Below are positions 17,627 through 48,349 of a stretch of 64,000 bases of DNA, in pieces. This stretch comes from Deltaproteobacteria bacterium (GTDB lineage Bacteria > Myxococcota_A > UBA9042 > PHBI01): positions 1,490 through 65,489 of the forward strand of contig JAEUKJ010000497.1 in NCBI GenBank assembly GCA_016792665.1, written 5' to 3'. Made by a program: the position numbers and the translations under genes. The notes below the pieces were generated by a model, which saw only the letters and a program-made list of their open reading frames with translations, had not been told where the DNA came from and searched no databases. Positions within the stretch are counted from its first letter, which is position 1; the number at the start of each line of letters is the position of its first letter.

Positions 17627-17686
17627 GCGAGTTTCCTTTTTCAATTCAATAGCTTGAGTGGTCGCGCAGGAACGCCCTGCCGCGGC

Positions 17687-36304: not shown

Positions 36305-37471
36305 CTACGTGAGGACCAGGTCGTTCCGATGGATCACCGGATCGATCAAGCCCTTGCCGAGCTTGTCCGCGACCGCATCGCTGCGCAAGCCCCGGATGGC
36401 CTCGAGCGTCTCGTCGTCGTAGCCTACCAGCCCGCGCCCGACGAGCTCGCCCTCGGGCCCCCGGATCTCGACCCCGTCGCCCGGCTGGAAGTGCCCGCTC
36501 ACCGCGGTGACCCCGATCGGCAAGAGGCTCGCCGGCCGCTCACGCAAGGCCCGCATCGCACCCGCATCGACCCGGATGACCCCGTTCACCTTCGAGATGA
36601 AGCCGATCCAATGGCGCCGCCGATCGACCCGCTTCTGTGGGTGGAACAAGGTCCCCTCGGGCGCGCCATCGACGATGCGACCGACGATGGTCGGGTCGGC
36701 GCCGAGCGCGATGACCAACGGGATGCCGGCCTCGACCGCGATCTCGGCCGCCTGGATCTTCGACACCATGCCACCGGTGCCGACCCCGGTGCCCGCGACG
36801 CCGGCCATTTGCCGCACCTCGAGGTCGATCTTGGCGACCTCGCGCACCGGCTGCGCGTTCGCGTCCACGCGCGGGTCGCGGTCGTAGAGACACGGGATGT
36901 CCGAGAGCAGGATCACCAGGTCGGCCTCGAAGACCGTCGCGAACGCGGCCGCGAGCCGATCGTTGTCGCCGAAGCGCAGCTCCTCGGTGGCGACCGTGTC
37001 GTTCTCGTTGACGATCGGGATGACGCCGAGGTCGACCAGCTCGCCCAGCGTGTGCCTCAAGCTCAAGAAGTGGTGACGGCGCGCGATGTCCTCGTGGGTG
37101 AGCAGGATCTGCGCGCTCTGGATCTTGTGGCGCAGAAAGCTCTGCCCATAGCGACCCATGAGATCGGCCTGCCCCACGGCCGCCAGCGCTTGCACCCGCG
37201 CGAGCTCCTTCGGACGCTCCGAGAACCCGAGCCGCTGCATGCCGCACGCGACCGCACCCGAGGTCACGATGGCGACCTCGTGCCCGCGCTCGCGCATCGC
37301 ACTGACGGCGTCGACGAAGGCGTCGAGGTAGCTCGAGCCATCGGCCATGACACCTTGCAAGGTCGAGCTGCCGACCTTCAGGACCACGCGCCGCGCGAAG
37401 CCCACGCTGCCCCCGGCCCCGTAATAGCGCTTCCAGCTGGAAGCCGCGCTCGATAGGTCGGCGTCAGCCAT
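36305..37471 (-). CDS. proB: glutamate 5-kinase
   Basis: Motifs: VVLKVGSSTL, IVTSGAVACG, PIVNENDTVATEELRFGDNDRLAA, and a PUA-like C-terminus (GVIRVDAGAMRAL...GRGLVGYD). The proposed ATG 37471 overlaps the murA stop by 8 nt. A downstream GTG start is also possible. Confidence 0.85.
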   Translation of the reverse strand: MADADLSSAASSWKRYYGAGGSVGFARRVVLKVGSSTLQGVMADGSSYLDAFVDAVSAMRERGHEVAIVTSGAVACGMQRLGFSERPKELARVQALAAVGQADLMGRYGQSFLRHKIQSAQILLTHEDIARRHHFLSLRHTLGELVDLGVIPIVNENDTVATEELRFGDNDRLAAAFATVFEADLVILLSDIPCLYDRDPRVDANAQPVREVAKIDLEVRQMAGVAGTGVGTGGMVSKIQAAEIAVEAGIPLVIALGADPTIVGRIVDGAPEGTLFHPQKRVDRRRHWIGFISKVNGVIRVDAGAMRALRERPASLLPIGVTAVSGHFQPGDGVEIRGPEGELVGRGLVGYDDETLEAIRGLRSDAVADKLGKGLIDPVIHRNDLVLT

Positions 37472-38780
37472 CGTCGCGAACGATTGAGGCGCCGAGCGCG
37501 CGCAGCTTGTCGTCGATGCGCATGTAGCCGCGATCGATCTGGCGGATGTTGTAGATGGTCGAGGTCCCCTTGGCCGCCAGCGCCGCGATGAGGAGCGCCA
37601 TGCCGGCGCGCACGTCCGGGCTCTCGAGCCGCGCCGCATAGAGCTGCGAGGCCCCGACGACCACGATGCGATGCGGGTCGCACAGGATGATCGACGCGCC
37701 CATCGCGATGAGCGAGTCGGTAAAGAACATCCGACCCTCGAACATCTTCTCGAAGAACAGCACCGTGCCCTGGCACTGCGTCGCGGTCGTGATGGCGATC
37801 GACATGAGGTCGGTCGGGAAGGCCGGCCACGGCGCGTCATCGATGCGCGGGATGGCGCCGTGGAGGTCCTTGCGGATGGACAGCGGCTGCCCCGGACGCA
37901 CGCGCAGGGTCGCCCCCTGTCCTGGCGACGAAGCGGGCGCCGGCTCGACCTCCGGATGCACGCCGAGCTTGCCGAAGACGTGCAGGATCATGCGCAGCTC
38001 GTCGGGGCGGCAACCCTGGATCGAGATGTCGCTCTGGGTGACCGCGGCGAGCCCGATCCAGCTCCCGATCTCGAGGTAGTCGGGCCCGATCGTGTGGGTC
38101 GTGCCGTGCAGCTTCTTCGAGCCCGAGATGCGCAGCGTGCCGGTGCCGATGCCCGAGATCTCGGCGCCCATCGACACGAGCATGCGGCAGAGGCCCTGCA
38201 CGTGCGGCTCGCAGGCCGCGTTCATGAGCACGGTCTGCCCCTCGGCCAGGACCGCGGCCATGATGATGTTCTCGGTCGCGGTGACCGAGGCCTCGTCGAG
38301 GAAGATCTCGGTACCAGTGAGGCGCTTGCCGTCCGGGATCGCGAGCTCGTACGAGCCATTGGCCGAGAAGCTCGCGCCCAGCGCCTGCAGGCCGAAGAAG
38401 TGCGTGTCCAGGCGGCGGCGGCCGATGACGTCACCACCCGGAGGCGGCAGGACGACGTAGCCCATGCGCGCCAGGATCGGGCCCGCGAAGAGGATGGACG
38501 CGCGCACGCGGCGCGCCAGATCCGCATCGACCTTGCCATCGTGCAGCGTCGCCGCCGTGACCCGCACCGTGTCCTCGGCGAGCCGCTCGACCTTGGCCCC
38601 GAGCGCTTCCAGGACCTCGTACATGACGCGCACGTCGGCGATGTCGGGGACATTGCGGAGCACGACCGGCTCGGCCGTCAGGAGGCAGGCGGCGATGACC
38701 GGCAGCGCCTCGTTCTTCGACCCGCTCGGCGTGACCGTGCCGGACAGTGGCTTGCCCCCCTCGATGACGAATCGCTCCAT
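37464..38780 (-). CDS. murA: UDP-N-acetylglucosamine 1-carboxyvinyltransferase
   Basis: ATG 38780 gives MERFVIEGGKPLSGTVTPSGSKNEALPVIAACLL... The active-site loop reads LPPPGGDVIGRRRLDTH, with Asp at residue 117 where E. coli MurA has Cys115. Confidence 0.9.
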   Translation of the reverse strand: MERFVIEGGKPLSGTVTPSGSKNEALPVIAACLLTAEPVVLRNVPDIADVRVMYEVLEALGAKVERLAEDTVRVTAATLHDGKVDADLARRVRASILFAGPILARMGYVVLPPPGGDVIGRRRLDTHFFGLQALGASFSANGSYELAIPDGKRLTGTEIFLDEASVTATENIIMAAVLAEGQTVLMNAACEPHVQGLCRMLVSMGAEISGIGTGTLRISGSKKLHGTTHTIGPDYLEIGSWIGLAAVTQSDISIQGCRPDELRMILHVFGKLGVHPEVEPAPASSPGQGATLRVRPGQPLSIRKDLHGAIPRIDDAPWPAFPTDLMSIAITTATQCQGTVLFFEKMFEGRMFFTDSLIAMGASIILCDPHRIVVVGASQLYAARLESPDVRAGMALLIAALAAKGTSTIYNIRQIDRGYMRIDDKLRALGASIVRDDG

Positions 38781-38994
38781 GCCCTGACCTCCGTGGTGAA
38801 CCCAACCGACGCGCGACGGCCGCCGGACGCAACACCCTGTCGGCATGCTGCGCCTGTCGAGAGGCGCGGCACCTGTTCGGCTGCGCCTGTCGAGGGGCGC
38901 ATGCTAACCGTGCCGATCCGCGTCGTCGATCTTTTCCTGAAGCCCGCTTCGCACCTCGCCGCGGGCCGCATCTGCAACGGACGATGACCCCGAC

Positions 38995-40167
38995 TCATTC
39001 GGCCGAGAGCACCCCGGCCTCGACCTTCCAGCGACGCATCGCGTCGTCACCGACCCGAATCCAACGACGGTCGGTGGTCGTGACGAAGACCTGTCCCCCA
39101 CCGCGCTGCAAGGTCTCCATCAGCAGCGCATTGCGCCGCTCGTCGAGCTCGCTCGAGACGTCATCGAGGAGGAACACCGGGTAGACCCCGTGCGCCTCGT
39201 GGATGCGATGCAGCTCGGCGATCTTCAGCGCCAACACGAAGGCCCGATGCTGGCCCTGGCTCGCAAACGCCCGCACCGGCCGGCCATCGATCATCAAGTC
39301 GAGCTCGTCCGCATGCGGACCGAGACGCGTCCACCCGAGCTTCGCATCCGACGCGCGCGCCCGCGACAGCGCCGCGGCGAGCTCGAGCGCGACCGACGGC
39401 ATCGCCGCCACGCCGAAGTCGCGCCCGGCAGCCTCGCTTCCCGAGGCCTTGTGCGAGTCGGCGTGATCGAAGCCCGAGGCCTTGTGCGTGAGGGTCGCCG
39501 TGAGCTCGCCGTCGGTGATCTGCCGGAAGGCCTCGGCGAAGTGCACGACGAAGCGCTCGAGGAAGAGGTGGCGCCGCATCAAGACACTCGCGCCGCGTCG
39601 CGCGAGCTCGCCTTCGAAGGCGTCGAGGACGTGGGGATCGAGGGCCACCCCGCGCACCTTGGCGTCGCGGAGGAGGCGGTTCCGGTGCTTGAGCGCCTCG
39701 TGATAGGCGCGCAGCTCGAGGAGGTGCTCGGGCCACACCGCGAAGGTCGCGCGGTCGAGGAAGCGACGACGCACCTCGGGCCCGGCCTTGGTGAGCTCGA
39801 GGTCGTCCGGCCCGAAGAGCACCGCCGCCATGTGCGAGAACGAGCTCGGCATGCGCGTGATGACCTTGCCGTCCAGGAGGACCTTCTTGCCCTCCTTGGC
39901 GAGCTGGATCTCGACTGTGCGCTTGACCTCGCGCCTGACGATCTCGCCATAGACCACCGCGCGCTCGGCCCCGAAGCGCACGAGCTCGCCCTGCTTCGCG
40001 TCACGCGGACTGCGGAACGCCGAGAGCAGATAGACGGCCTCGAGGAGGTTCGTCTTGCCCTGGCCGTTGCGCCCTTCGAAGAGGTTGAATCGCGGCCCCG
40101 GCTCGATACGAAAGGTCTCGAGGTTACGGAAGTCCTGGGCGGCCAGGACCTCTAGACCGACATGCAT
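38995..40167 (-). CDS. recF: DNA replication/repair protein RecF
   Basis: ATG 40167 gives MHVGLEVLAAQDFRNLE...FEGRNGQGKTNLLEAVY (Walker A). The signature and Walker B region reads SQGQHRAFVLALKIAE...VFLLDDVSSELD. Confidence 0.9.
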   Translation of the reverse strand: MHVGLEVLAAQDFRNLETFRIEPGPRFNLFEGRNGQGKTNLLEAVYLLSAFRSPRDAKQGELVRFGAERAVVYGEIVRREVKRTVEIQLAKEGKKVLLDGKVITRMPSSFSHMAAVLFGPDDLELTKAGPEVRRRFLDRATFAVWPEHLLELRAYHEALKHRNRLLRDAKVRGVALDPHVLDAFEGELARRGASVLMRRHLFLERFVVHFAEAFRQITDGELTATLTHKASGFDHADSHKASGSEAAGRDFGVAAMPSVALELAAALSRARASDAKLGWTRLGPHADELDLMIDGRPVRAFASQGQHRAFVLALKIAELHRIHEAHGVYPVFLLDDVSSELDERRNALLMETLQRGGGQVFVTTTDRRWIRVGDDAMRRWKVEAGVLSAE

Positions 40168-40308
40168 GAGGAACCCTAGGGATTCAGGCTGCTCAAAAAT
40201 GGCCAGATGCAAGGAGCCGGAAAGACAAGGAGTGAGGCGGGCTTGGGGCCCGCCGCAACGACGACTCCTTCCGAGCGACGCCGCAGATGGCCGTTTTTCA
40301 GCAGCCTG

Positions 40309-41463
40309 CTAGACGCGCATGGGCATGACGACGAACACCGCACCCGGCTCCGACGGAGAGGTCAGGACCGTCGGCGAGAACTCGTCGGTCATCTCGAAGA
40401 CGACCGACTCGCCCTTCACGACGCCGAGGACGTCGAGGAGGTAGTTGTAGTTGAAGCCGACCACCATGCCCTCGCCGCGGTAGTCGACGTCGAGCTCGTC
40501 GCGCCCCTCGCCGTAGTCGGGGTTCGACGCCGTGACGGCGAGCTTGCCCGGCGTGAGCTCGAGCTTGATGATGTAGGTCTTGTTCGAGGTGAGGATCGCG
40601 TTCTTGCGGATGGCGCGGGCGAGACGCTCACGCGGGACGACCACCTTCACCGGCGAGCTCTGCGGGATGACCCGCGAGTAGTCGGGGTAGTTGTCCTCGA
40701 TCTGACGCACCGAGAACACCGTGCCACCGGTCGCGGTCTTGCCCGCGCGGAAGAGGATGACCCCCTGCGCGAAGCCGACCTCGAGCGCGTCGGCGTCGCT
40801 CTCGAAGAGGCGCTTCACCTCGGTCACACCCTTCTTGTGGATGATGGCCGAGTACTGGTCCTTCTTGCCGATGCCGGCGACCTCGGCCTCGAGCTCGACC
40901 TTCGAGAGGCGATGGCCGTCGGTCGAGACCATCGTGAGCTTGGCGAGCCCGTCGGCCGACCCGGCGGTCACCTTGAAGAAGACGCCGTTCAGGTTCATGC
41001 GCGTCTCGTCCGAGGACATCGAGAACGCGGTCTTCTCGAAGAGATCACGCAGCGCCGACTTCGGAATGCGCAGCCACTTCGCGTCTTCCGGGATCTTCAT
41101 CTCCGGGAAGTCGGCAGGCGTCACACCGGCCAGCTTGAAGTAGGCACGACCGGCCGAGAGCTCGCTCCAGTCGTTGGGCAGCGCGCGCAGATGCAGCGGC
41201 GTCTCGTCGAGGTTCTTCACCACGTCGAAGAGGCTCTTGCCGTTGATGCAGGCGGAGCCGGGGACGATCACCTCGGCCGGGATCTCGGCCATGATGGTCA
41301 CGTCGTAGTCGGTGCTGACGAGGCGCGCGGTGCCGTCGGGCAGGCTCTCGACCAGGACATGGGCAAGGACGTTGCTCGTCGACTTCCTGTCGACGACACC
41401 CTGGGTCTTGTAGACCGCCCCGAGAAAGGTGGTGCGATCGAGTCTGAGCTCCAACGTGGCCAT
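40309..41463 (-). CDS. dnaN: DNA polymerase III beta sliding clamp
   Basis: 384 aa. The sequence runs MATLELRLDRTTFLGAVYKTQGVVDRKSTSNVLAHVLVE...VFVVMPMRV, a typical three-domain clamp pattern. Confidence 0.9.
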   Translation of the reverse strand: MATLELRLDRTTFLGAVYKTQGVVDRKSTSNVLAHVLVESLPDGTARLVSTDYDVTIMAEIPAEVIVPGSACINGKSLFDVVKNLDETPLHLRALPNDWSELSAGRAYFKLAGVTPADFPEMKIPEDAKWLRIPKSALRDLFEKTAFSMSSDETRMNLNGVFFKVTAGSADGLAKLTMVSTDGHRLSKVELEAEVAGIGKKDQYSAIIHKKGVTEVKRLFESDADALEVGFAQGVILFRAGKTATGGTVFSVRQIEDNYPDYSRVIPQSSPVKVVVPRERLARAIRKNAILTSNKTYIIKLELTPGKLAVTASNPDYGEGRDELDVDYRGEGMVVGFNYNYLLDVLGVVKGESVVFEMTDEFSPTVLTSPSEPGAVFVVMPMRV

Positions 41464-42407
41464 GGTCCCTCGTCTTGCCGTGCGCTGCGTCGGAGGTCGA
41501 GCTCGGAAGGAGCACCCTCCCTCACCCGACCCGCTCGGCGAGGCCCCTGCTTACCCGTCTTTTGGATGGTACTCAAGCGATCCCCTGGGGTGGGCGATCG
41601 AGCGTCACGAGGGTCACGAGGGTGGGACCGCGGGTCGTGATCGATTTCTTGCGCGATCGGCGGTTCGGGCCATCGCCTGATCATGAGGACGAGATCCCAG
41701 AACAGAAGAGAGGGCAGAGCAACAGGATCACTAGGGGCTGGGGATCTTGGGGACAACCTCTCAATACGCTGGAATCAAAACGTAAACGGGAGGGCGAGAT
41801 CGTGGATCGAGGGCGCAAGAGATCGTGTGCGAGGGTGTGGACGGCGGTGGAGTCGCGAAGGCCTCGGCGCGATCTCCACACGGATCCCCGACGACCCACG
41901 TGGGGATCCCCGGGGCTCCCACAGGGTTATCCCCATGACCTCCACAGCGCGCGTGATCGGCGAGCGCGAAGATGACGATGACAATGTCCGAGGACCGGTC
42001 GGAGAGACGATGCTCGGGAACTCGTTCTGACCGTGGCGCTTGCCTCGATCGCTACCTGTAACCGCGCATCGCATGCTTGCGATCGTCGGCGAGGGGGTGT
42101 TAGCTCGCAGCACAGTTCACGAGGGCCATGTGCCCGCCCCAAGTGCCTGTCACCGATGACGCGGATGCGTTCCTCGGTGCCCCTGTCGCCCGAGCGACAG
42201 AACGTCATCCGAGGACCCGCGACACGCGCGCACGCCAGCGCGGATAGGGTCCAAACCGATCCGCCGACGCGCGGATCGCGAGAGGCGCGCAAGCGTCGCA
42301 GCGAACGATTGTCTTCAAAGCATGAGCGGCCGCGCCGACAGCGCGCGGATCGATGAAAGAACGGTGAGCGCACGGGGTCGGGCGCGCACCGAGGGGAGCT
42401 CTCATCC
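41464..42407. other. putative chromosomal replication origin (oriC) region
   Basis: A 944-bp gap with no credible ORF lies between divergent dnaN and dnaA. It holds a cluster of DnaA-box-like 9-mers at 41739..41946. The most AT-rich stretch is 41761..41790 (13 G+C in 30 nt, against a much higher background). Gene orientation bias switches here (25/34 minus to the left, 11/14 plus to the right). Confidence 0.65.
41739..41946. promoter_or_regulatory. cluster of DnaA-box-like / GGGGAT(C/A) motifs
   Basis: Sites on the + strand: ttatcccca 41927..41935 (8/9 to TTATCCACA), atctccaca 41872..41880, acctccaca 41938..41946, ggatccccg 41882..41890. Sites in the reverse orientation: tggggatct 41739..41747, gtggatcga 41802..41810, tgtggacgg 41836..41844, tggggatcc 41901..41909. 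Confidence 0.5.
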
Positions 42408-43781
42408 TTGGATCTTTGGAACAAAGCCCTCACGGGCATTCAAGCCCAGGTCGAGCCGTGGGACTTCGCGCACTGGATCAAGCCGGTGGTCTGCGATGTC
42501 GTCGACGAGGCCCGCGGTGAGATCGTGCTCGCGGTGCCGGACGAGTCCCATGGTCAGTGGCTCGAGGAACACTTCGCTTCGTACATCCGCAAGGAGCTCT
42601 CGCGCCTCGGTGGGTCCGAGCTCCGCATCCGCTACACCACCTATGAGAACCGGCAGGGCCCTCTCCTCGCCATGACCGCTCCCGAGGAGCCGGCCCGTGC
42701 GCTCGCGTCCTCGCCGGCGATGCCTGCCATCGAAGTGCTCGAGCCGATCGAGCCGCCGAACCTGAACGAACGCTACCGCTTCGAGAGCTTCGTCGACGGG
42801 CCGACCAACCAGTTCGCGATGAGCGCCGCGCGCGCGGTCGCCGACCACCCGGGCACGCGCTACAACCCGCTCTTCATCTTCGGCGGTGTGGGCCTCGGCA
42901 AGACCCACCTCCTGCACGCGATCGGTCACGCCGTGCGCGAGAAGAACCCGCGTGCACGGGTGCGCTACGTGACCAGCGAGCAGTTCGTCAACGACCTGAT
43001 CCAGGCCATCCGCAGCGACAAGATGCAGGGCTTCCGCCAGCGCTATCGCGACCGCTGCGACGTCCTCCTCATCGACGACATCCAGTTCATCGCCGGCAAG
43101 GATCGTACGCAGGAGGAGTTCTTCCACCTCTTCAACACGCTCCACTCGTCGGCCAAGCAGATCGTGATGACCTGCGATCAGCTGCCCCAGTCGATCCCCG
43201 ACATGGAAGATCGTCTGCGCTCGCGGCTCACGTGGGGTCTCACCGCCGACATCAAGCCGCCGGGCTTCGAGACGCGCGTCGCGATCCTCAAGGCGAAGGC
43301 CGACCTCGAGGGCATCGACCTCGCCGACGACGTCGCGATGCTGGTCGCGCGCCACATCACGCAGAACGTGCGGCAGCTGGAAGGCGCGCTCTTGAAGCTC
43401 GTCGCCTCGCAAAAGCTCATGCACCGCCCGATCGATCTCGACATGGCGCACCAGGCGCTCGGCGCGATGCTCGGCGAGACGCTGACCCGCATCATGCCGG
43501 ACGCGATCCTGAAGGCGGTGGTCGCCGAGTTCAAGGTGAGCCTCACCGACCTCAAGGGACCGCGCCGCCACCGCAACATCACCGTGCCGCGGCAGATCGC
43601 GATGTACCTCATCCGCGAGCTGACCGACGTGTCCCTGCCGCAGATCGGGCAGCTCTTCGGGGGCCGCGATCACTCGACGGTCATCAACTCGCTGAAGCGG
43701 GTCGAGGCGATGCGTGACGCCAACCCCGAGGTCCGCACCCAGCTCGATCGCCTGCGCCGCATGGTGCGCGACGGCGCCTGA
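42408..43781 (+). CDS. dnaA: chromosomal replication initiator protein DnaA
   Basis: TTG start with GAGGGGAG 10 nt upstream. Motifs: LWNKAL..., the AAA+ Walker A GGVGLGKTHLLHAIG, Walker B LLIDDIQF, and the domain IV segment QIAMYLIRELTDVSLPQIGQLFGGRDHSTVINSLKRV. Confidence 0.92.
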   Translation: MDLWNKALTGIQAQVEPWDFAHWIKPVVCDVVDEARGEIVLAVPDESHGQWLEEHFASYIRKELSRLGGSELRIRYTTYENRQGPLLAMTAPEEPARALASSPAMPAIEVLEPIEPPNLNERYRFESFVDGPTNQFAMSAARAVADHPGTRYNPLFIFGGVGLGKTHLLHAIGHAVREKNPRARVRYVTSEQFVNDLIQAIRSDKMQGFRQRYRDRCDVLLIDDIQFIAGKDRTQEEFFHLFNTLHSSAKQIVMTCDQLPQSIPDMEDRLRSRLTWGLTADIKPPGFETRVAILKAKADLEGIDLADDVAMLVARHITQNVRQLEGALLKLVASQKLMHRPIDLDMAHQALGAMLGETLTRIMPDAILKAVVAEFKVSLTDLKGPRRHRNITVPRQIAMYLIRELTDVSLPQIGQLFGGRDHSTVINSLKRVEAMRDANPEVRTQLDRLRRMVRDGA

Positions 43782-43939
43782 GCCCGGGGCGTACGCGCCG
43801 CGGCTCGAACCACCTGACCTGCTTCCACTTCGGGGGCAGGCTTCTAAACCCTTGACAGCACCAGGCGCGCGATGATTGATACGCGCCTCGCTTTTGCGGC
43901 CCCTGAGCCGCGAGAGCCACTTCGTCGGGAGACGTTTCC

Positions 43940-44092
43940 GTGACCAAGCGCACGTACCAGCCCCATAATCGCAAGCGGAAGAACACCCATGGTTTCCGCG
44001 AGCGCATGTCGTCCCACGGTGGCCGCAAGGTCATCAACGCCCGCCGCAAGAAGGGGCGCAAGCGCCTGACCGTGGCGACGCCCAAGAAGTGA
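43940..44092 (+). CDS. rpmH: 50S ribosomal protein L34
   Basis: Not in the ORF track because it is under 60 aa. My own translation from GTG 43940 gives [50 protein letters not shown], with the stop at 44090..44092. Confidence 0.9.
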
Positions 44093-44131
44093 CGATCGTG
44101 CTCCCCCACGAGGTGAGCCCAGACAGCGTCG

Positions 44132-44836
44132 ATGGAGTCGACGATGTCGTCACATCCCGCGAAGGCGGCGAGCATGAGCGAACCGGCCCAAGCAGGGATG
44201 TCAGAGCCGACGGACCGCGATGAGACGAGCGCTCAGCCCGTTGCGGGTCGTGGCGATCGACTCGACGCCCTGGCCCGTGTCGCGGCCGACGTCGTCGTGG
44301 CCGGGGGGAGCCTCGTCTCTCCCCGGGTCAGCGAGTCTTTCCCCAAGGAATGCAGAATCCTGCATCGATCCGAGTTCCTCCGGATCCAGGGGCAGGGTCA
44401 CCGCATCCACGGGGCGCGCCTCATCTTCCAGTTCCTCCCTGGCCGGACGCCGCGATCGCGGCTCGGCCTCACGGTCTCGAAGAAGGTCGGCAACGCGGTC
44501 GTCCGCAATCGGATCAAGCGTTGGCTCCGCGAGGCCTTCCGACGCCATCCCGAGCTGCGACCCGACCGACCCACGCGCGGGCAGCCTTCGAAAGCCTACG
44601 ACCTCGTCATCACCGCCAAGCGTGACATCGAGGACTTCGGCTTCGCCGTCCTGCACGCCGAGGTCGTCGACGTCCTCGGACGCTATCTCGACGGTCGCTT
44701 CGATCGACGGAGAGCCGGTGGACGGGATGGCAAGGGACCTCGGGCAGAGCCCACTGGCGGCGATCGATCGGGGGCCCGAGGGGGCGGCCAGCGCGCGCCC
44801 GCGAAGTCGAATCGTCCGGGCCCTGCGCGCGATTGA
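44132..44836 (+). CDS. rnpA: ribonuclease P protein component
   Basis: The core reads [32 protein letters not shown]...[26 protein letters not shown] (RNR motif). The start is uncertain (ATGs at 44132, 44144, 44174 and 44198). The Arg/Gly-rich tail overlaps yidD. Confidence 0.8.
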
Positions 44837-45104
44837 TCGCGCCCTGGCGTGGCCGCTGCTCGCGCTGATCTTCGTCTATCGCAAGCTCATCTCGCCGGCC
44901 CTGCCTCCCGCGTGTCGCTTCTATCCCTCGTGCTCGGCCTATGCGAACGAGGCCCTCACGCGACACGGACTCTCCTACGGCGCCCCGCTCATGGCGTGGC
45001 GGCTCTGTCGATGCCACCCCTTTTCGCGCGGTGGCTTCGACCCGGTGCCCGGCTCCCCGGGCTCGACAGGCTCCGAGCCCGTCGAAGATCGCGAAGGAAA
45101 CTAG
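44727..45104 (+). CDS. yidD: membrane protein insertion efficiency factor YidD
   Basis: ATG 44727 within ORF 44220..45104. The core reads [58 protein letters not shown]. The extent of the N-terminal extension is uncertain. Confidence 0.85.
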
Positions 45105-45110
45105 ATCATC

Positions 45111-47312
45111 ATGCTTCGTTGGCTCATCGCGTGCGGCGCGCTCATCGCTTCCTCGGGCGCGGCCCTGGCTCAAGACGGTGGGGTCGGTGGCAATGTCGGG
45201 CAGGCCTCTACGGGCCCGTCCACCCAGGGGCCGAGCGTGCCCGGCAAGGTCGAGACCTCGGACTACTTCGGCGAGCAATCGAAGCAGCAACCCGAGCGTG
45301 AAGAGCGCGTGATCGTGGGCTTCCCGGTCGACAAGCCGGCGGTCGTCTACACCTTCACGAATCGCGGCGGCACGATGTCGAAGGCGATCCTCCAGGATCC
45401 GCGCTTCACGCACGCCGCGCGCAACCTCATCCCCAACGTCCCGCCCGAGAAGCTGCTGGCGGGGCAGATCGACCTCGTCTCGACCTGGGGTCCGAAGTGG
45501 CTGCCCTTCGGGACCACCTTCGGCAAGCTGTCCTACCCTGGCCAGGTGACGCTCGTGCTCCGCAAGGCGAGCGATGGGATCATCGAGGGTGGCGTCCTGA
45601 AGCCCCCGGCGGACCGCGCCAAGCTGGCGGTCGACCGACCGATCAAGGCCGACGACCTGCTCGTCGTGACTGCGCCGGCCAACGTCGCGGGCGAGTACAA
45701 GATCGCCTCGGTCGGCAGCGGCGGCGCGCTGACCCCGGTGAAGGAGTTCGCGGCCAAGGCGGCGACCGGAGTCACCTACGAGGTGAAGCGCACCGGCTCG
45801 ATCGAGGCGCTCTACGACGACGACCGCACCTTCGTGCGCGTGTCGGCGACCCCGGGCCTGCCGCTCGTCTACGTGTGGCCGAACCCGGCCTTCGACAGCT
45901 CGCCGGTCTTCATCGAGCGCCGCTTCGACGCGGGCCAGCACCCCTTCGAGCTCAAGCTCTCGGTGACGGTGCACAACGTCGGGACCGAGCTCCTGCAGGT
46001 CCAGACCGGTATCCGCATCGGTGCCTGGCAGCATCCCGAGACGGGGTCGCCCGGGCTCTTCGGTGGGCCGACCCCGGTGCTCCAGGCGAGCTGCCTCGCG
46101 GCCGACGGGCTCGAGCACGCGCCCTTCGCGTCGCTGCGCGAGGCCGCCATCGAGAAGTACGAGCAGCACCAGGAGGCGGTCGGGTTCAAGGCGTTCCCGT
46201 CGGGCACGCAGTGGGTCGCCGCCGACACCAACTACTTCATCCAGGCCGCCGTGCCGATGCCGATCAATGCGGCCGGTGGGCAGTGCCAGCTCGGGTTGAA
46301 GGACTTCAACCCCACGGTGCCCGGTGCGTGGGTGATGTGGTCGCAGTTCATGGCGTCCAACATCGTGGAGATCCCCAAGCGCGGTCAGGGCTGCGTCGCG
46401 GACTGGCTGCCCGAGAGCGCGGCTGGCGTGACCGGGCTGCCGCGCTGCAAGGCGTCGCTCGACAAGCTGGGCGTGACCTCGGCCTCGAGCATCGACGAGG
46501 TGAAGCAGGCCTGGGAGAAGGCGCGCGCGGCTGGCGGTGATCTCGCCGCAGTGGACCAGGCCTATCAGTTGCTGACCGAGCGTCGCCAGGCGACGTGGCG
46601 CTACAACCTCTACAACGGCCCGAAGGACACGGCGTTCCTGCCCGAGTCGCACCCCGAGCTGAAGCGCGCGGTGCAGTTCGGGTGGATGTCGTTTGTCGGC
46701 GCCCCGATGCACAAGGTGCTCGTGTGGTTCCACGAGGGCCTCGGGAGCTGGCCGCTCGCCATCATCCTGCTGACGCTGGGGCTCAAGCTCATCACGTGGC
46801 CGCTCTCGCAGAAGAGCTACATGTCGATGCAGAAGATGAAGAACATCCGGCCCAAGCTCGACGAGCTCAAGCGCAAGTTCGGCAACGACCGCGCGAAGTT
46901 CTCGCAGGAGCAGATGGCGCTCATGAAGCGCGAGGGTGTGAACCCGTTCGCGGGGTGCCTGCCGATGCTGCTCCAGTTCCCGATCTGGGTCGGTCTCTAC
47001 GGGGCCATCCTCGGCTCGGTCGAGCTCTATCACGAGCCGCTCGGGCTCTGGGTGCCGGACCTCTCGTCGTCCGACCCCTACTTCATCATGCCGATCCTCC
47101 TCGGCATCCTCATGTTCGTCCAGACGCTGCTCACGCCGCAGACCGCGACCGACGAGACGCAGGCCAAGATCATGAAGTATGGCATGCCCATCATGTTCAC
47201 GGTCTTCATGCTGTTCCTGCCGTCTGCCCTCGTCCTCTACATCCTCTTCAACACGATCCTCACGATCGTCCAAAACCTCCTCATCAAACGCCGCATGGAG
47301 GCCCGCGCATGA
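45111..47312 (+). CDS. yidC: membrane protein insertase YidC (long periplasmic domain, 733 aa)
   Basis: ATG 45111 follows GAAGGAAA. The C-terminal 60-kDa insertase core reads LAIILLTLGLKLITWPLSQKSYMSMQKMKNIRPKLDELKRKF...GCLPMLLQFPIWVGLY...LVLYILFNTILTIVQN. Confidence 0.9.
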   Translation: MLRWLIACGALIASSGAALAQDGGVGGNVGQASTGPSTQGPSVPGKVETSDYFGEQSKQQPEREERVIVGFPVDKPAVVYTFTNRGGTMSKAILQDPRFTHAARNLIPNVPPEKLLAGQIDLVSTWGPKWLPFGTTFGKLSYPGQVTLVLRKASDGIIEGGVLKPPADRAKLAVDRPIKADDLLVVTAPANVAGEYKIASVGSGGALTPVKEFAAKAATGVTYEVKRTGSIEALYDDDRTFVRVSATPGLPLVYVWPNPAFDSSPVFIERRFDAGQHPFELKLSVTVHNVGTELLQVQTGIRIGAWQHPETGSPGLFGGPTPVLQASCLAADGLEHAPFASLREAAIEKYEQHQEAVGFKAFPSGTQWVAADTNYFIQAAVPMPINAAGGQCQLGLKDFNPTVPGAWVMWSQFMASNIVEIPKRGQGCVADWLPESAAGVTGLPRCKASLDKLGVTSASSIDEVKQAWEKARAAGGDLAAVDQAYQLLTERRQATWRYNLYNGPKDTAFLPESHPELKRAVQFGWMSFVGAPMHKVLVWFHEGLGSWPLAIILLTLGLKLITWPLSQKSYMSMQKMKNIRPKLDELKRKFGNDRAKFSQEQMALMKREGVNPFAGCLPMLLQFPIWVGLYGAILGSVELYHEPLGLWVPDLSSSDPYFIMPILLGILMFVQTLLTPQTATDETQAKIMKYGMPIMFTVFMLFLPSALVLYILFNTILTIVQNLLIKRRMEARA

Positions 47313-48349
47313 CCGCTCCCACCACGTTCACCGGCAAGAATCTCGAGACGGCGCTGCAGAAGGCGTCGCAGGCCACGGGGCTCGCCCCCGAGGCGATCAA
47401 GTACGAAATCCTCGCCGGCAAGACCGGGGGCTATGCGCTCATCAAGGTGATCGGTCAGGCCGCTGCGGTCCCGACCGGACCCCTGGTCGAGAGCCTCTCC
47501 GGCGACCCGAACGCGGCTGCTCCCGCGCGTGCCGATCGCGGCGACCGTGGTGATCGTGGCGACCGTCCGCCGCGTGATCGCGACCGTGGTGGCGATCGTG
47601 GCCCGCGCCCCGAGCGCAGCGGCGACCGCGGTGGTGATCGCGGCCCGCGCCCCGAGCGCAGCGGCGACCGTGGCCCGCGTCCCGACCGTGGTGACCGCGG
47701 CGATCGCGGCCCTCGCCCCGAGCGCGGTGGTGATCGTGGCCCGCGTCGTCGCGATGACCGCGACGAGCTCTTGCCGGTGCCGCAGGACGGCCCGACCGCC
47801 GTCACCTTCGAGGTGGCCGCCGAGGGACCGCTCACCGCGTTCGGCGAGAAGGTCCGCGACGTGCTCGTCGCCACGCTCGAGAAGATGGGCTTCGGCATGA
47901 AGCTGGTCTTCCTCGAGGGCGCCGACGAAGTGCAGGTCGACCTCGTCAGCGGGGTCTACCACGACGTGCTCCTCGCCAAGGAGCTCGAGCTGCTGGACGC
48001 CCTCGAGCACCTCGTCGAGAAGGTCGCCATCGGACACGGCAACCTCCCCGAGGGCGCGCCGAAGAAGAAGGTCCACCTCGACTCGAACGGCTTCCGCGCC
48101 AAGGCCGACCTCGACCTCGCGCACTCGGCCCGCGAGATGGCGGACCGCGCCATCGCCGACCAGCGCGTCTTCAAGCTCGGCCCGCTCGATCCCCGCGCCC
48201 GTCGCGTGGTTCACCTCACGCTCCGCGAGTACGCCGGCGTCGTGACCCGCTCCGAGGGCGAGGGCGTCTTCCGCCGCGTCTGCATCATCCCGAAGAGCGC
48301 CGAGGCCACCGACAACACGTCGGTCCAGGACGACCACTCGGGCGAGTGA
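47309..48349 (+). CDS. jag: Jag/KhpB RNA-binding protein (Jag_N, KH, R3H) with a DRG-repeat insert
   Basis: ATG 47309 overlaps the yidC stop (ATGA). The N-terminus MTAPTTFTGKNLETALQKASQATGLAPEAIKYEIL is Jag_N-like. The C-terminus has the R3H-like GPLDPRARRVVHLTLREYAGVVTRSEGEG..RRVCI. Confidence 0.85.
   Translation: MTAPTTFTGKNLETALQKASQATGLAPEAIKYEILAGKTGGYALIKVIGQAAAVPTGPLVESLSGDPNAAAPARADRGDRGDRGDRPPRDRDRGGDRGPRPERSGDRGGDRGPRPERSGDRGPRPDRGDRGDRGPRPERGGDRGPRRRDDRDELLPVPQDGPTAVTFEVAAEGPLTAFGEKVRDVLVATLEKMGFGMKLVFLEGADEVQVDLVSGVYHDVLLAKELELLDALEHLVEKVAIGHGNLPEGAPKKKVHLDSNGFRAKADLDLAHSAREMADRAIADQRVFKLGPLDPRARRVVHLTLREYAGVVTRSEGEGVFRRVCIIPKSAEATDNTSVQDDHSGE
47531..47768 (+). repeat. in-frame tandem repeats encoding a (G)DRGPRPER(S)GDRG low-complexity linker
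   Basis: DNA units such as ggcccgcgccccgagcgcagcggcgaccg recur. The protein reads DRGDRGDRGDRPPRDRDRGGDRGPRPERSGDRGGDRGPRPERSGDRGPRPDRGDRGDRGPRPERGGDRGPRRRDDRDE. Confidence 0.8.

Follow-up and report, generated by a model that had tools for sequence, protein, structure and literature searches.

Escherichia coli oriC is characterized by flanking gidA/mioC transcription, Dam/SeqA control and 13-mer repeats. Among the closest described systems are Bacillus subtilis incC and Clostridioides difficile oriC2 (PMC6669920, PMC8287927, PMC7561715), where the origin likewise lies in the intergenic region between dnaA and dnaN and carries a basal unwinding system (BUS). The search criteria for a BUS comprise a DnaA box with no more than two mismatches, an optional second tandem box with no more than four, a spacer of 0–16 bp that includes a GC cluster, and three or more consecutive NAN trios (PMC8287927); its orientation was matched here to the C. 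difficile example (PMC7561715). For Sorangium cellulosum So ce56, oriC has been predicted beside dnaN rather than dnaA, with the box TTATCCCCC (Gao & Zhang 2008, PMC2650636), and the classical GC-skew inversion was reported to be missing (PMC2650636).

In this study, we analyzed a window of 64,000 nucleotides (the whole stretch of DNA considered here), in which dnaN and dnaA diverge from a 944-bp gap. Within this gap, 41640–41965 is probably the chromosomal replication origin (oriC), and it is a rearranged form of the well-known dnaA–dnaN type rather than a new kind of origin. A sequence-only reading had already proposed a probable oriC here, which is now supported by a box cluster that is unique in the genome, by a core conserved beside dnaN in ten loci and by a BUS-like module.

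Gene order around the dnaN–dnaA gap

The window spans positions 1490–65489 of contig C590 (68 kb), part of a draft genome of 789 contigs (7.25 Mb, 70% G+C, 86% complete), whose host family, placed by its DnaA relatives, is an uncultured one of the Myxococcota. Gene identities were assigned using Pfam:

36305–37840, minus strand: proB
37464–38846, minus strand: murA
38995–40212, minus strand: recF
40309–41463, minus strand: dnaN, DNA polymerase III beta clamp (DNA_pol3_beta, _2 and _3 domains)
41464–42407: intergenic gap of 944 bp, from the dnaN start codon to the dnaA start codon
42408–43781, plus strand: dnaA, TTG start, 457 aa (DnaA_N, Bac_DnaA, Bac_DnaA_C)
43940–44092, plus strand: rpmH (Ribosomal_L34)
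inside 44220–45104, plus strand: yidD (YidD)
45111–47312, plus strand: yidC (60KD_IMP)
ending at 48349, plus strand: Jag/R3H gene (R3H, Jag_N)

Thus, proB, murA, recF and dnaN read leftward, dnaN being the first gene of dnaN-recF-murA-proB, and dnaA, rpmH, rnpA/yidD, yidC and jag read rightward from the gap, so that the rpmH-rnpA/yidD-yidC-jag block (43940–48349, plus strand) is now co-directional with dnaA. The order previously read from the letters, with dnaN-recF to the left and dnaA-rpmH-rnpA-yidD-yidC-jag to the right, is borne out by the Pfam assignments, and the bounds proposed for the gap (41464–42407) are exact. The flip in strand usage at the gap is roughly as had been claimed: GC3-based gene calls, which are crude, place 22/30 genes on the minus strand to the left and 8/9 on the plus strand to the right. 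The dnaA gene is single-copy, with one match in the draft genome, and its TTG/GTG start and N-terminus are kept across relatives; dnaN shares 60–87% identity with its counterparts in ten related loci. Genes of the gyrB type lie on other contigs (C307 and C241), and the genes scanned to the right of jag did not include parAB.

None of the open reading frames in the gap shows the coding signature GC3>GC1>GC2, which is present in all flanking genes. An Rfam scan of the gap returned no match, the sole hit being sub-threshold and within dnaA, and a simple scan of the gap for sigma-70 promoters and terminators gave nothing useful. The Rfam match within dnaA (42879–42942, minus strand) is to AsdA, an antisense RNA of dnaA from Salmonella; it reached 33 bits, below the gathering score of 52, and is probably due to the conserved coding sequence of dnaA.

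A DnaA-box cluster unique in the draft genome

Seven TCC[AC]CA cores fall within 41739–41946. The density of this core is 7.4 per kb in the gap compared to 0.50 per kb in the genome (about 15-fold), and the gap represents the single maximum of the 7.25-Mb draft, with seven cores per 600 bp and four in the next best place. The box cluster noticed earlier in the gap is therefore confirmed. Based on the E. coli consensus, only three 9-mers of the gap lie within two mismatches, whereas allowing C at position 7 (TTATCCMCA) gives five 9-mers with no more than two mismatches, all in 41739–41946, including a perfect match, TTATCCCCA, at 41927. A DnaA-dependent oriC is expected to show three or more boxes spaced by under 100 bp in an intergenic region next to dnaA and/or dnaN, and this stretch, with its five 9-mers and seven cores, shows that pattern. 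Core and 9-mer scans delimited the following elements:

41756–41748, minus strand, pointing at dnaN: tandem box 1, TTGTCCCCA, one mismatch to TTATCCMCA
41747–41739, minus strand, pointing at dnaN: tandem box 2, AGATCCCCA, two mismatches to TTATCCMCA
41801–41946: upstream DnaA-box array, comprising the boxes below
41809–41801, minus strand: box CGATCCACG
41843–41835, minus strand: box CGTCCACAC
41872–41880, plus strand: box ATCTCCACA
41882–41890, plus strand: box GGATCCCCG
41909–41901, minus strand: box GGATCCCCA
41914–41923, plus strand: box GGCTCCCACA
41927–41935, plus strand: box TTATCCCCA, the best box
41938–41946, plus strand: box ACCTCCACA

Comparison with relatives and history of the flip

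A scan of species-representative genomes yielded eleven close Myxococcota loci. The canonical layout, in which jag, yidC, yidD and rpmH read leftward and dnaA, dnaN, recF, murA and proB read rightward, was found in L003, L004, L005, L007 and L008 and, within the reach of their contigs, in L009 and L011. The window, L001, L002 and L006 share the flipped layout: the flanks are as in the canonical loci and only dnaA is reversed. Canonical loci carry 4–8 boxes in the spacer between dnaA and dnaN and none between rpmH and dnaA; in the flipped loci, the boxes lie in the gap between dnaN and dnaA, with none between dnaA and rpmH.

The origin cores of ten loci (six canonical and four flipped, including the window) could be aligned module by module, in one order and one orientation relative to dnaN. 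Towards dnaN, this order consists of a reverse TTATCC(C/G)CA box with its neighbours, a forward GATCCAC box, a spacer, the tandem forward pair, a G/C 4-mer, CTA and a CT-rich tract. The TTATCC(C/G)CA box and its neighbour are alignable in 10/10 loci, the tandem pair occupies identical alignment columns in 10/10, and the 80 boxes pooled from the ten cores give T-T-A-T-C-C-(A/C)-C-A.

A tree of DnaN, RecF, MurA and DnaA groups the four flipped loci as a single clade (100/100), whose sister group consists of the canonical L003–L005. They span two coded genera (g1 and g5) of one family and stem from four independent assemblies, one of which is a closed 9.29-Mb chromosome. As all flipped loci fall within a single 100/100 clade, one inversion event is indicated, and sequence comparison makes it almost certain that a dnaA cassette flipped once, in an ancestor shared by the two genera within this uncultured Myxococcota family. 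The earlier suggestion that dnaA alone is inverted thus stands, with relatives sharing the flanks but differing in dnaA orientation and with the flipped loci being monophyletic. The same reading had listed the lack of gyrB after recF as part of the rearranged neighbourhood; this lack is true here, but it does not belong to the rearrangement, since canonical relatives also have recF-murA-proB, which makes it ancestral to the order and beyond (it is seen in L212 too).

Elsewhere in the class, G036 (L212) has dnaA diverging across 1.3 kb from dnaN-recF-murA-proB, with six boxes beside dnaN and no rpmH nearby, and G034 (L211) has dnaA, rpmH, yidD, yidC and jag in one direction with no dnaN upstream; both layouts are independent rearrangements. 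Taken together, the predicted origin core stays with dnaN, and of the two genes it is dnaA that moves. The flanks of dnaA are rearrangement-prone in the host family. About 6 kb are inserted between dnaA and rpmH in the flipped locus L002 (11446–17683), and G007 (L213) shows no dnaN within 6.6 kb downstream of dnaA.

Promoter-like elements and extent of the inverted cassette

The limits of the inverted piece were approached using promoter-like elements together with the boundaries of conserved modules:

41548–41576, minus strand: dnaN promoter-like element of putative function; −35 TTGAGT (41576–41571), 17-nt spacer, −10 TAAGCA (41553–41548)
42077–42105, plus strand: dnaA promoter-like element of putative function; TTGCGA-N17-TTAGCT, 331 nt before the TTG start
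43852–43880, plus strand: rpmH promoter-like element, TTGACA-N17-ATTGAT, which stayed in place
about 41965–43851, plus strand: flipped cassette of about 1.9 kb (approximate ends), with dnaA, its own promoter and a leader of about 300 nt

Upstream of dnaN, TTGAGC/TTGCAG-N17/18-TAAGCA/TAAAGC was found in L001, L002 and L006, and in the window only two 30-mers of the gap are less stable than the one at the dnaN element. The dnaA element occurs 225–354 nt upstream of dnaA in 10/11 loci and in both layouts, and thus travelled with dnaA. The dnaA leader (42106–42407, about 300 nt) has kept its length (225–354 nt) in all relatives and is poorly conserved in sequence. Upstream of rpmH, TTGACA with a TTA/TTG-type −10 recurs in both layouts, in 8/10 aligned loci (all but L004 and L005), in most loci 60–90 nt from the gene.

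On the left, the cassette begins after the last conserved origin module, at about 41963, and before the dnaA promoter at 42077; on the right, it ends past the stop codon of dnaA (43781) but short of the conserved −35 of rpmH (43852). Based on these elements and module boundaries, the inverted piece can be described as a cassette of about 1.9 kb with dnaA, promoter and leader. Inverted repeats beyond chance were not found at the cassette ends. Boxes upstream of dnaA were considered as recombination substrates for the flip and rejected, because the canonical relatives have none there.

Skew and gene orientation at the chromosome scale

Raw GC skew changes from positive values in the left part of the window to negative values in the right part. 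This is opposite to the pattern classically seen at an origin and is explained by a C-rich coding strand (coding-strand skew of about −0.05 on both sides). We sampled the closed chromosome G001 (9.29 Mb), a same-genus relative of the window with the homologous locus at 6.767 Mb, by 60 evenly spaced samples of 20 kb and a contiguous 400-kb stretch surrounding the locus, and the 1-Mb contig of G002 by 20 samples, separating coding-strand from position effects. The strand-independent skew flips sign every 20–60 kb, with amplitudes up to ±0.2, in G001, in the 1-Mb contig of G002 and in the window's contig, and in none of these was a replichore-scale switch detected. The sampled cumulative curve of G001 is no better than a random walk. 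The skew patches (G001:C1, loci L081–L140 and L161–L180; G002:C13, L141–L160) far exceed the coding-strand effect of about −0.05. We rejected GC skew as an origin test in the host lineage, as this mosaic of 20–60 kb patches is undecisive and is not evidence against an origin.

The three rRNA operons of G001 (3.49 Mb, minus strand; 5.75 Mb, minus strand; 7.44 Mb, plus strand) are transcribed away from the interval of 5.76–7.44 Mb holding the locus, which is weakly compatible with an origin at this place. The tRNA orientation map of G001 was set aside as uninformative, with 13/31 tRNA units co-oriented for an origin at 6.767 Mb compared to a best value of 18 at any position. Three consecutive samples of G001 (C1:1084070–1413803, L088–L090) showed 59–62% G+C compared to 67% for the genome and hardly any open reading frames with the usual codon signature; this stretch may be a large foreign island.

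A module resembling the basal unwinding system

The dnaN-proximal end of the predicted origin looks like the Bacillus basal unwinding system, in that tandem boxes are followed by a GCCC cluster and a run of six NAN trios:

41735–41738: GC cluster GGGC (GCCC read towards dnaN), flanked by the tandem boxes and the trios
41717–41734, plus strand: DnaA-trio-like run of six consecutive NAN triplets, GAG CAA CAG GAT CAC TAG
41680–41716: purine-rich (plus strand) tract of low stability, adjoining the trios; putative unwinding site as predicted by the BUS
41758–41790: stretch separating the tandem boxes from the middle box, with the lowest stability and the highest A+T content in the gap

Read towards dnaN, TTGTCCCCA-AGATCCCCA-GCCC is followed by CTA GTG ATC CTG TTG CTC. 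In the 3' to 5' direction, the trio-like run is 3'-GAT CAC TAG GAC AAC GAG-5', in which the box-proximal triplet is the consensus 3'-GAT-5'. Compared with TTATCCACA, TTGTCCCCA has two mismatches and AGATCCCCA three, and the 13-bp offset between the first box and the trios, made up of the 9-bp second box plus GCCC, falls within the spacer range of the BUS search. The run of six exceeds the three trios required in that search; across 1739 boxes of the genome, at least six trios follow 0.17% and at least three follow 7.2%.

Among the ten loci, the box-to-trio offset is 12–15 bp in 9/10, a G/C-rich 4-mer (GCCC, GGCC, GGGC or ACCC) occupies the GC-cluster site in 10/10, and a CT-rich tract follows the trio position on the dnaN side in 10/10. 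The trio run itself numbers six in the window and L006, two in seven loci and one in L001; the trio array is thus degenerate in most relatives and not conserved across the clade, while the junction of box, box, GC cluster and CTA is kept in the eight relatives with one or two NAN. In L002, about 230–320 nt upstream of dnaN, the tandem boxes are followed by a pure CT tract of about 70 nt, a potential triplex-forming polypyrimidine stretch that is longer than the CT tracts found there in the other origins.

With regard to duplex stability, the 30-mer at 41758 (41758–41787) is the least stable of the gap (dG −37.5, z=+3.4), and the 30-mer at 41680 (41680–41709), in the purine-rich tract, reaches z=+2.9. 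Neither is extreme in the window by 30-mer G+C. The stretch 41761–41790 (13/30 G+C) had been taken for the most AT-rich 30-mer of the window, which is wrong: 30-mers with 9/30 G+C start at 17630 and 51053, 174 window 30-mers have 13 G+C or fewer, and 41761–41790 is extreme, as least stable, only within the gap.

Alternative readings of the gap

The low stability of 41758–41787 raises the question of where the duplex would open. Instead of the trio side, the same origin might open in the A+T-rich spacer 41758–41790 inside the box array, the trio run of the window being fortuitous. In the gap, duplex stability is lowest for a 30-mer of this spacer (z=3.4), an A+T-rich stretch recurs at the matching place in L006, and 8/10 relatives have no run of three or more trios. 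However, the A+T composition of the spacer is not kept in L001, L002 and the canonical relatives, where it has no clear match, whereas the junction of boxes, GC cluster and CTA and the ensuing CT-rich tract are common to all ten loci, and only 0.17% of boxes are followed by so long a run of trios. We consider opening in the spacer possible, though on the unlikely side, and favour opening on the trio side; 41758–41790 could be an alternative unwinding element or a site for a bending protein.

DnaA-box clusters outside origins are well known, and the cluster could accordingly act on the dnaN and dnaA promoters only as a DnaA-dependent control or titration region, with replication starting elsewhere. 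The skew carries no signal that would tie the site to replication, and the roughly 14% of the genome missing from the draft could hold a second cluster. Yet no other locus of the draft comes near in box density, the boxes of the canonical relatives lie downstream of dnaA and not at its promoter, dnaA is single-copy and adjacent, and the order of modules matches experimentally tested dnaA–dnaN origins of other phyla, which leaves this explanation quite improbable. As the window stems from a draft of 789 contigs, the reversed dnaA might also be an assembly artefact of a fragmented metagenome bin. This is extremely improbable, since the layout recurs in four assemblies of different projects, including the closed chromosome, and tracks the phylogeny, and since both junctions lie inside the single 68-kb contig.

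GATC sites and a Dam-family methyltransferase

The gap contains 20 GATC sites in 944 bp, which is 3.8 times the genome density and the top window genome-wide; among the relatives, enrichment is uneven (0.9–3.4 times). A Dam-family adenine methyltransferase (PF02086) is encoded in 13/13 genomes sampled from the order (189–220 bits), and SeqA was found in 0/9 genomes searched. In the draft genome (G000), the PF02086 gene lies outside the window (C601:17452–18153, minus strand), divergent from uvrB and with no nuclease gene adjacent. A GATC-dense origin together with a PF02086 gene without a nuclease hints at a conserved orphan methyltransferase. GATC enrichment and a PF02086 gene are thus present, but with SeqA missing and the enrichment uneven, the pattern falls short of a Dam/SeqA-type control.

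Proposed working of the predicted origin

The predicted oriC would lie between two promoters firing outward, that of dnaN leftward and that of dnaA rightward. DnaA would bind along some ten arrayed 9-mers conforming to TTATCC(A/C)CA, and from the tandem pair nearest dnaN (41739–41756), a DnaA oligomer would be loaded on the adjoining plus-strand trios (41717–41734). The duplex would then open in the purine/pyrimidine-rich tract on the dnaN side, and forks would depart both ways, with all neighbouring genes co-oriented with them.

As the comparison of loci shows, the ancestral order was rpmH reading leftward, followed by dnaA, the predicted oriC and dnaN, with both dnaA and dnaN reading rightward. 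The cassette of about 1.9 kb (dnaA, promoter and leader) inverted once, leaving the place and orientation of the predicted origin beside dnaN unchanged. By this inversion, the old dnaA–dnaN spacer and the old upstream region of dnaA were joined as the present 944-bp gap, and dnaA, formerly the sole gene read towards the predicted origin, now reads away from it.

According to the twin-domain model, divergent promoters of dnaN and dnaA would be expected to favour opening of the origin. A further step, which we regard as unlikely, would be that the flip rewired origin control, with divergent dnaN/dnaA transcription aiding opening and GATC methylation perhaps helping to time initiation. Transcription of dnaA, once directed into the origin, would now diverge opposite the dnaN promoter, so that negative supercoiling generated by expression of initiator and clamp might build up in the origin between them and ease its opening. 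Adenine methylation of GATC by the order-wide orphan Dam-family enzyme, read by a factor other than SeqA, may set the timing.

Overall, the comparison assigns, with good support, an origin in an uncultured Myxococcota family where the usual GC-skew method fails, and it indicates that the origin core follows dnaN and not dnaA. Sister clades in which dnaA reads into or away from the same predicted origin represent a clean natural experiment, usable for studying the effects of flanking transcription and head-on replication on initiation. The general view of bacterial origin function is unchanged by this finding, which is a modest and ordinary variant.

Comparison with known systems

The predicted origin resembles E. 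coli oriC in being flanked by an outward-firing promoter, in its GATC density and in the presence of an encoded Dam-family methyltransferase, but it differs in having no SeqA and no 13-mer repeats and in its linkage to dnaA and dnaN.

With B. subtilis and C. difficile, it shares the box array and the succession from the last tandem pair to a GC cluster, CTA-type trios and an opening region towards dnaN, and the canonical relatives of the window also share their gene order, with rpmH diverging from dnaA, oriC and dnaN. In contrast to these systems, the origin described here is monopartite, the canonical relatives having no boxes upstream of dnaA; it is G+C-rich (65%), prefers the box TTATCCCCA and has degenerate trios in most relatives, and in the window's clade dnaA faces away from it.

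S. cellulosum belongs to the same phylum and is comparable in its high G+C content, in the predicted origin beside dnaN and in the C at position 7 of its box (TTATCCCCC). Its predicted origin is bordered on the other side by a kinase gene and not by dnaA, whereas here dnaA is adjacent and flipped; both origins are predictions. The published failure of GC skew in S. cellulosum matches the absent replichore-scale skew in the window's lineage. Taken together with the rearrangements among the relatives, the S. cellulosum origin predicted beside dnaN suggests that the origin follows dnaN.
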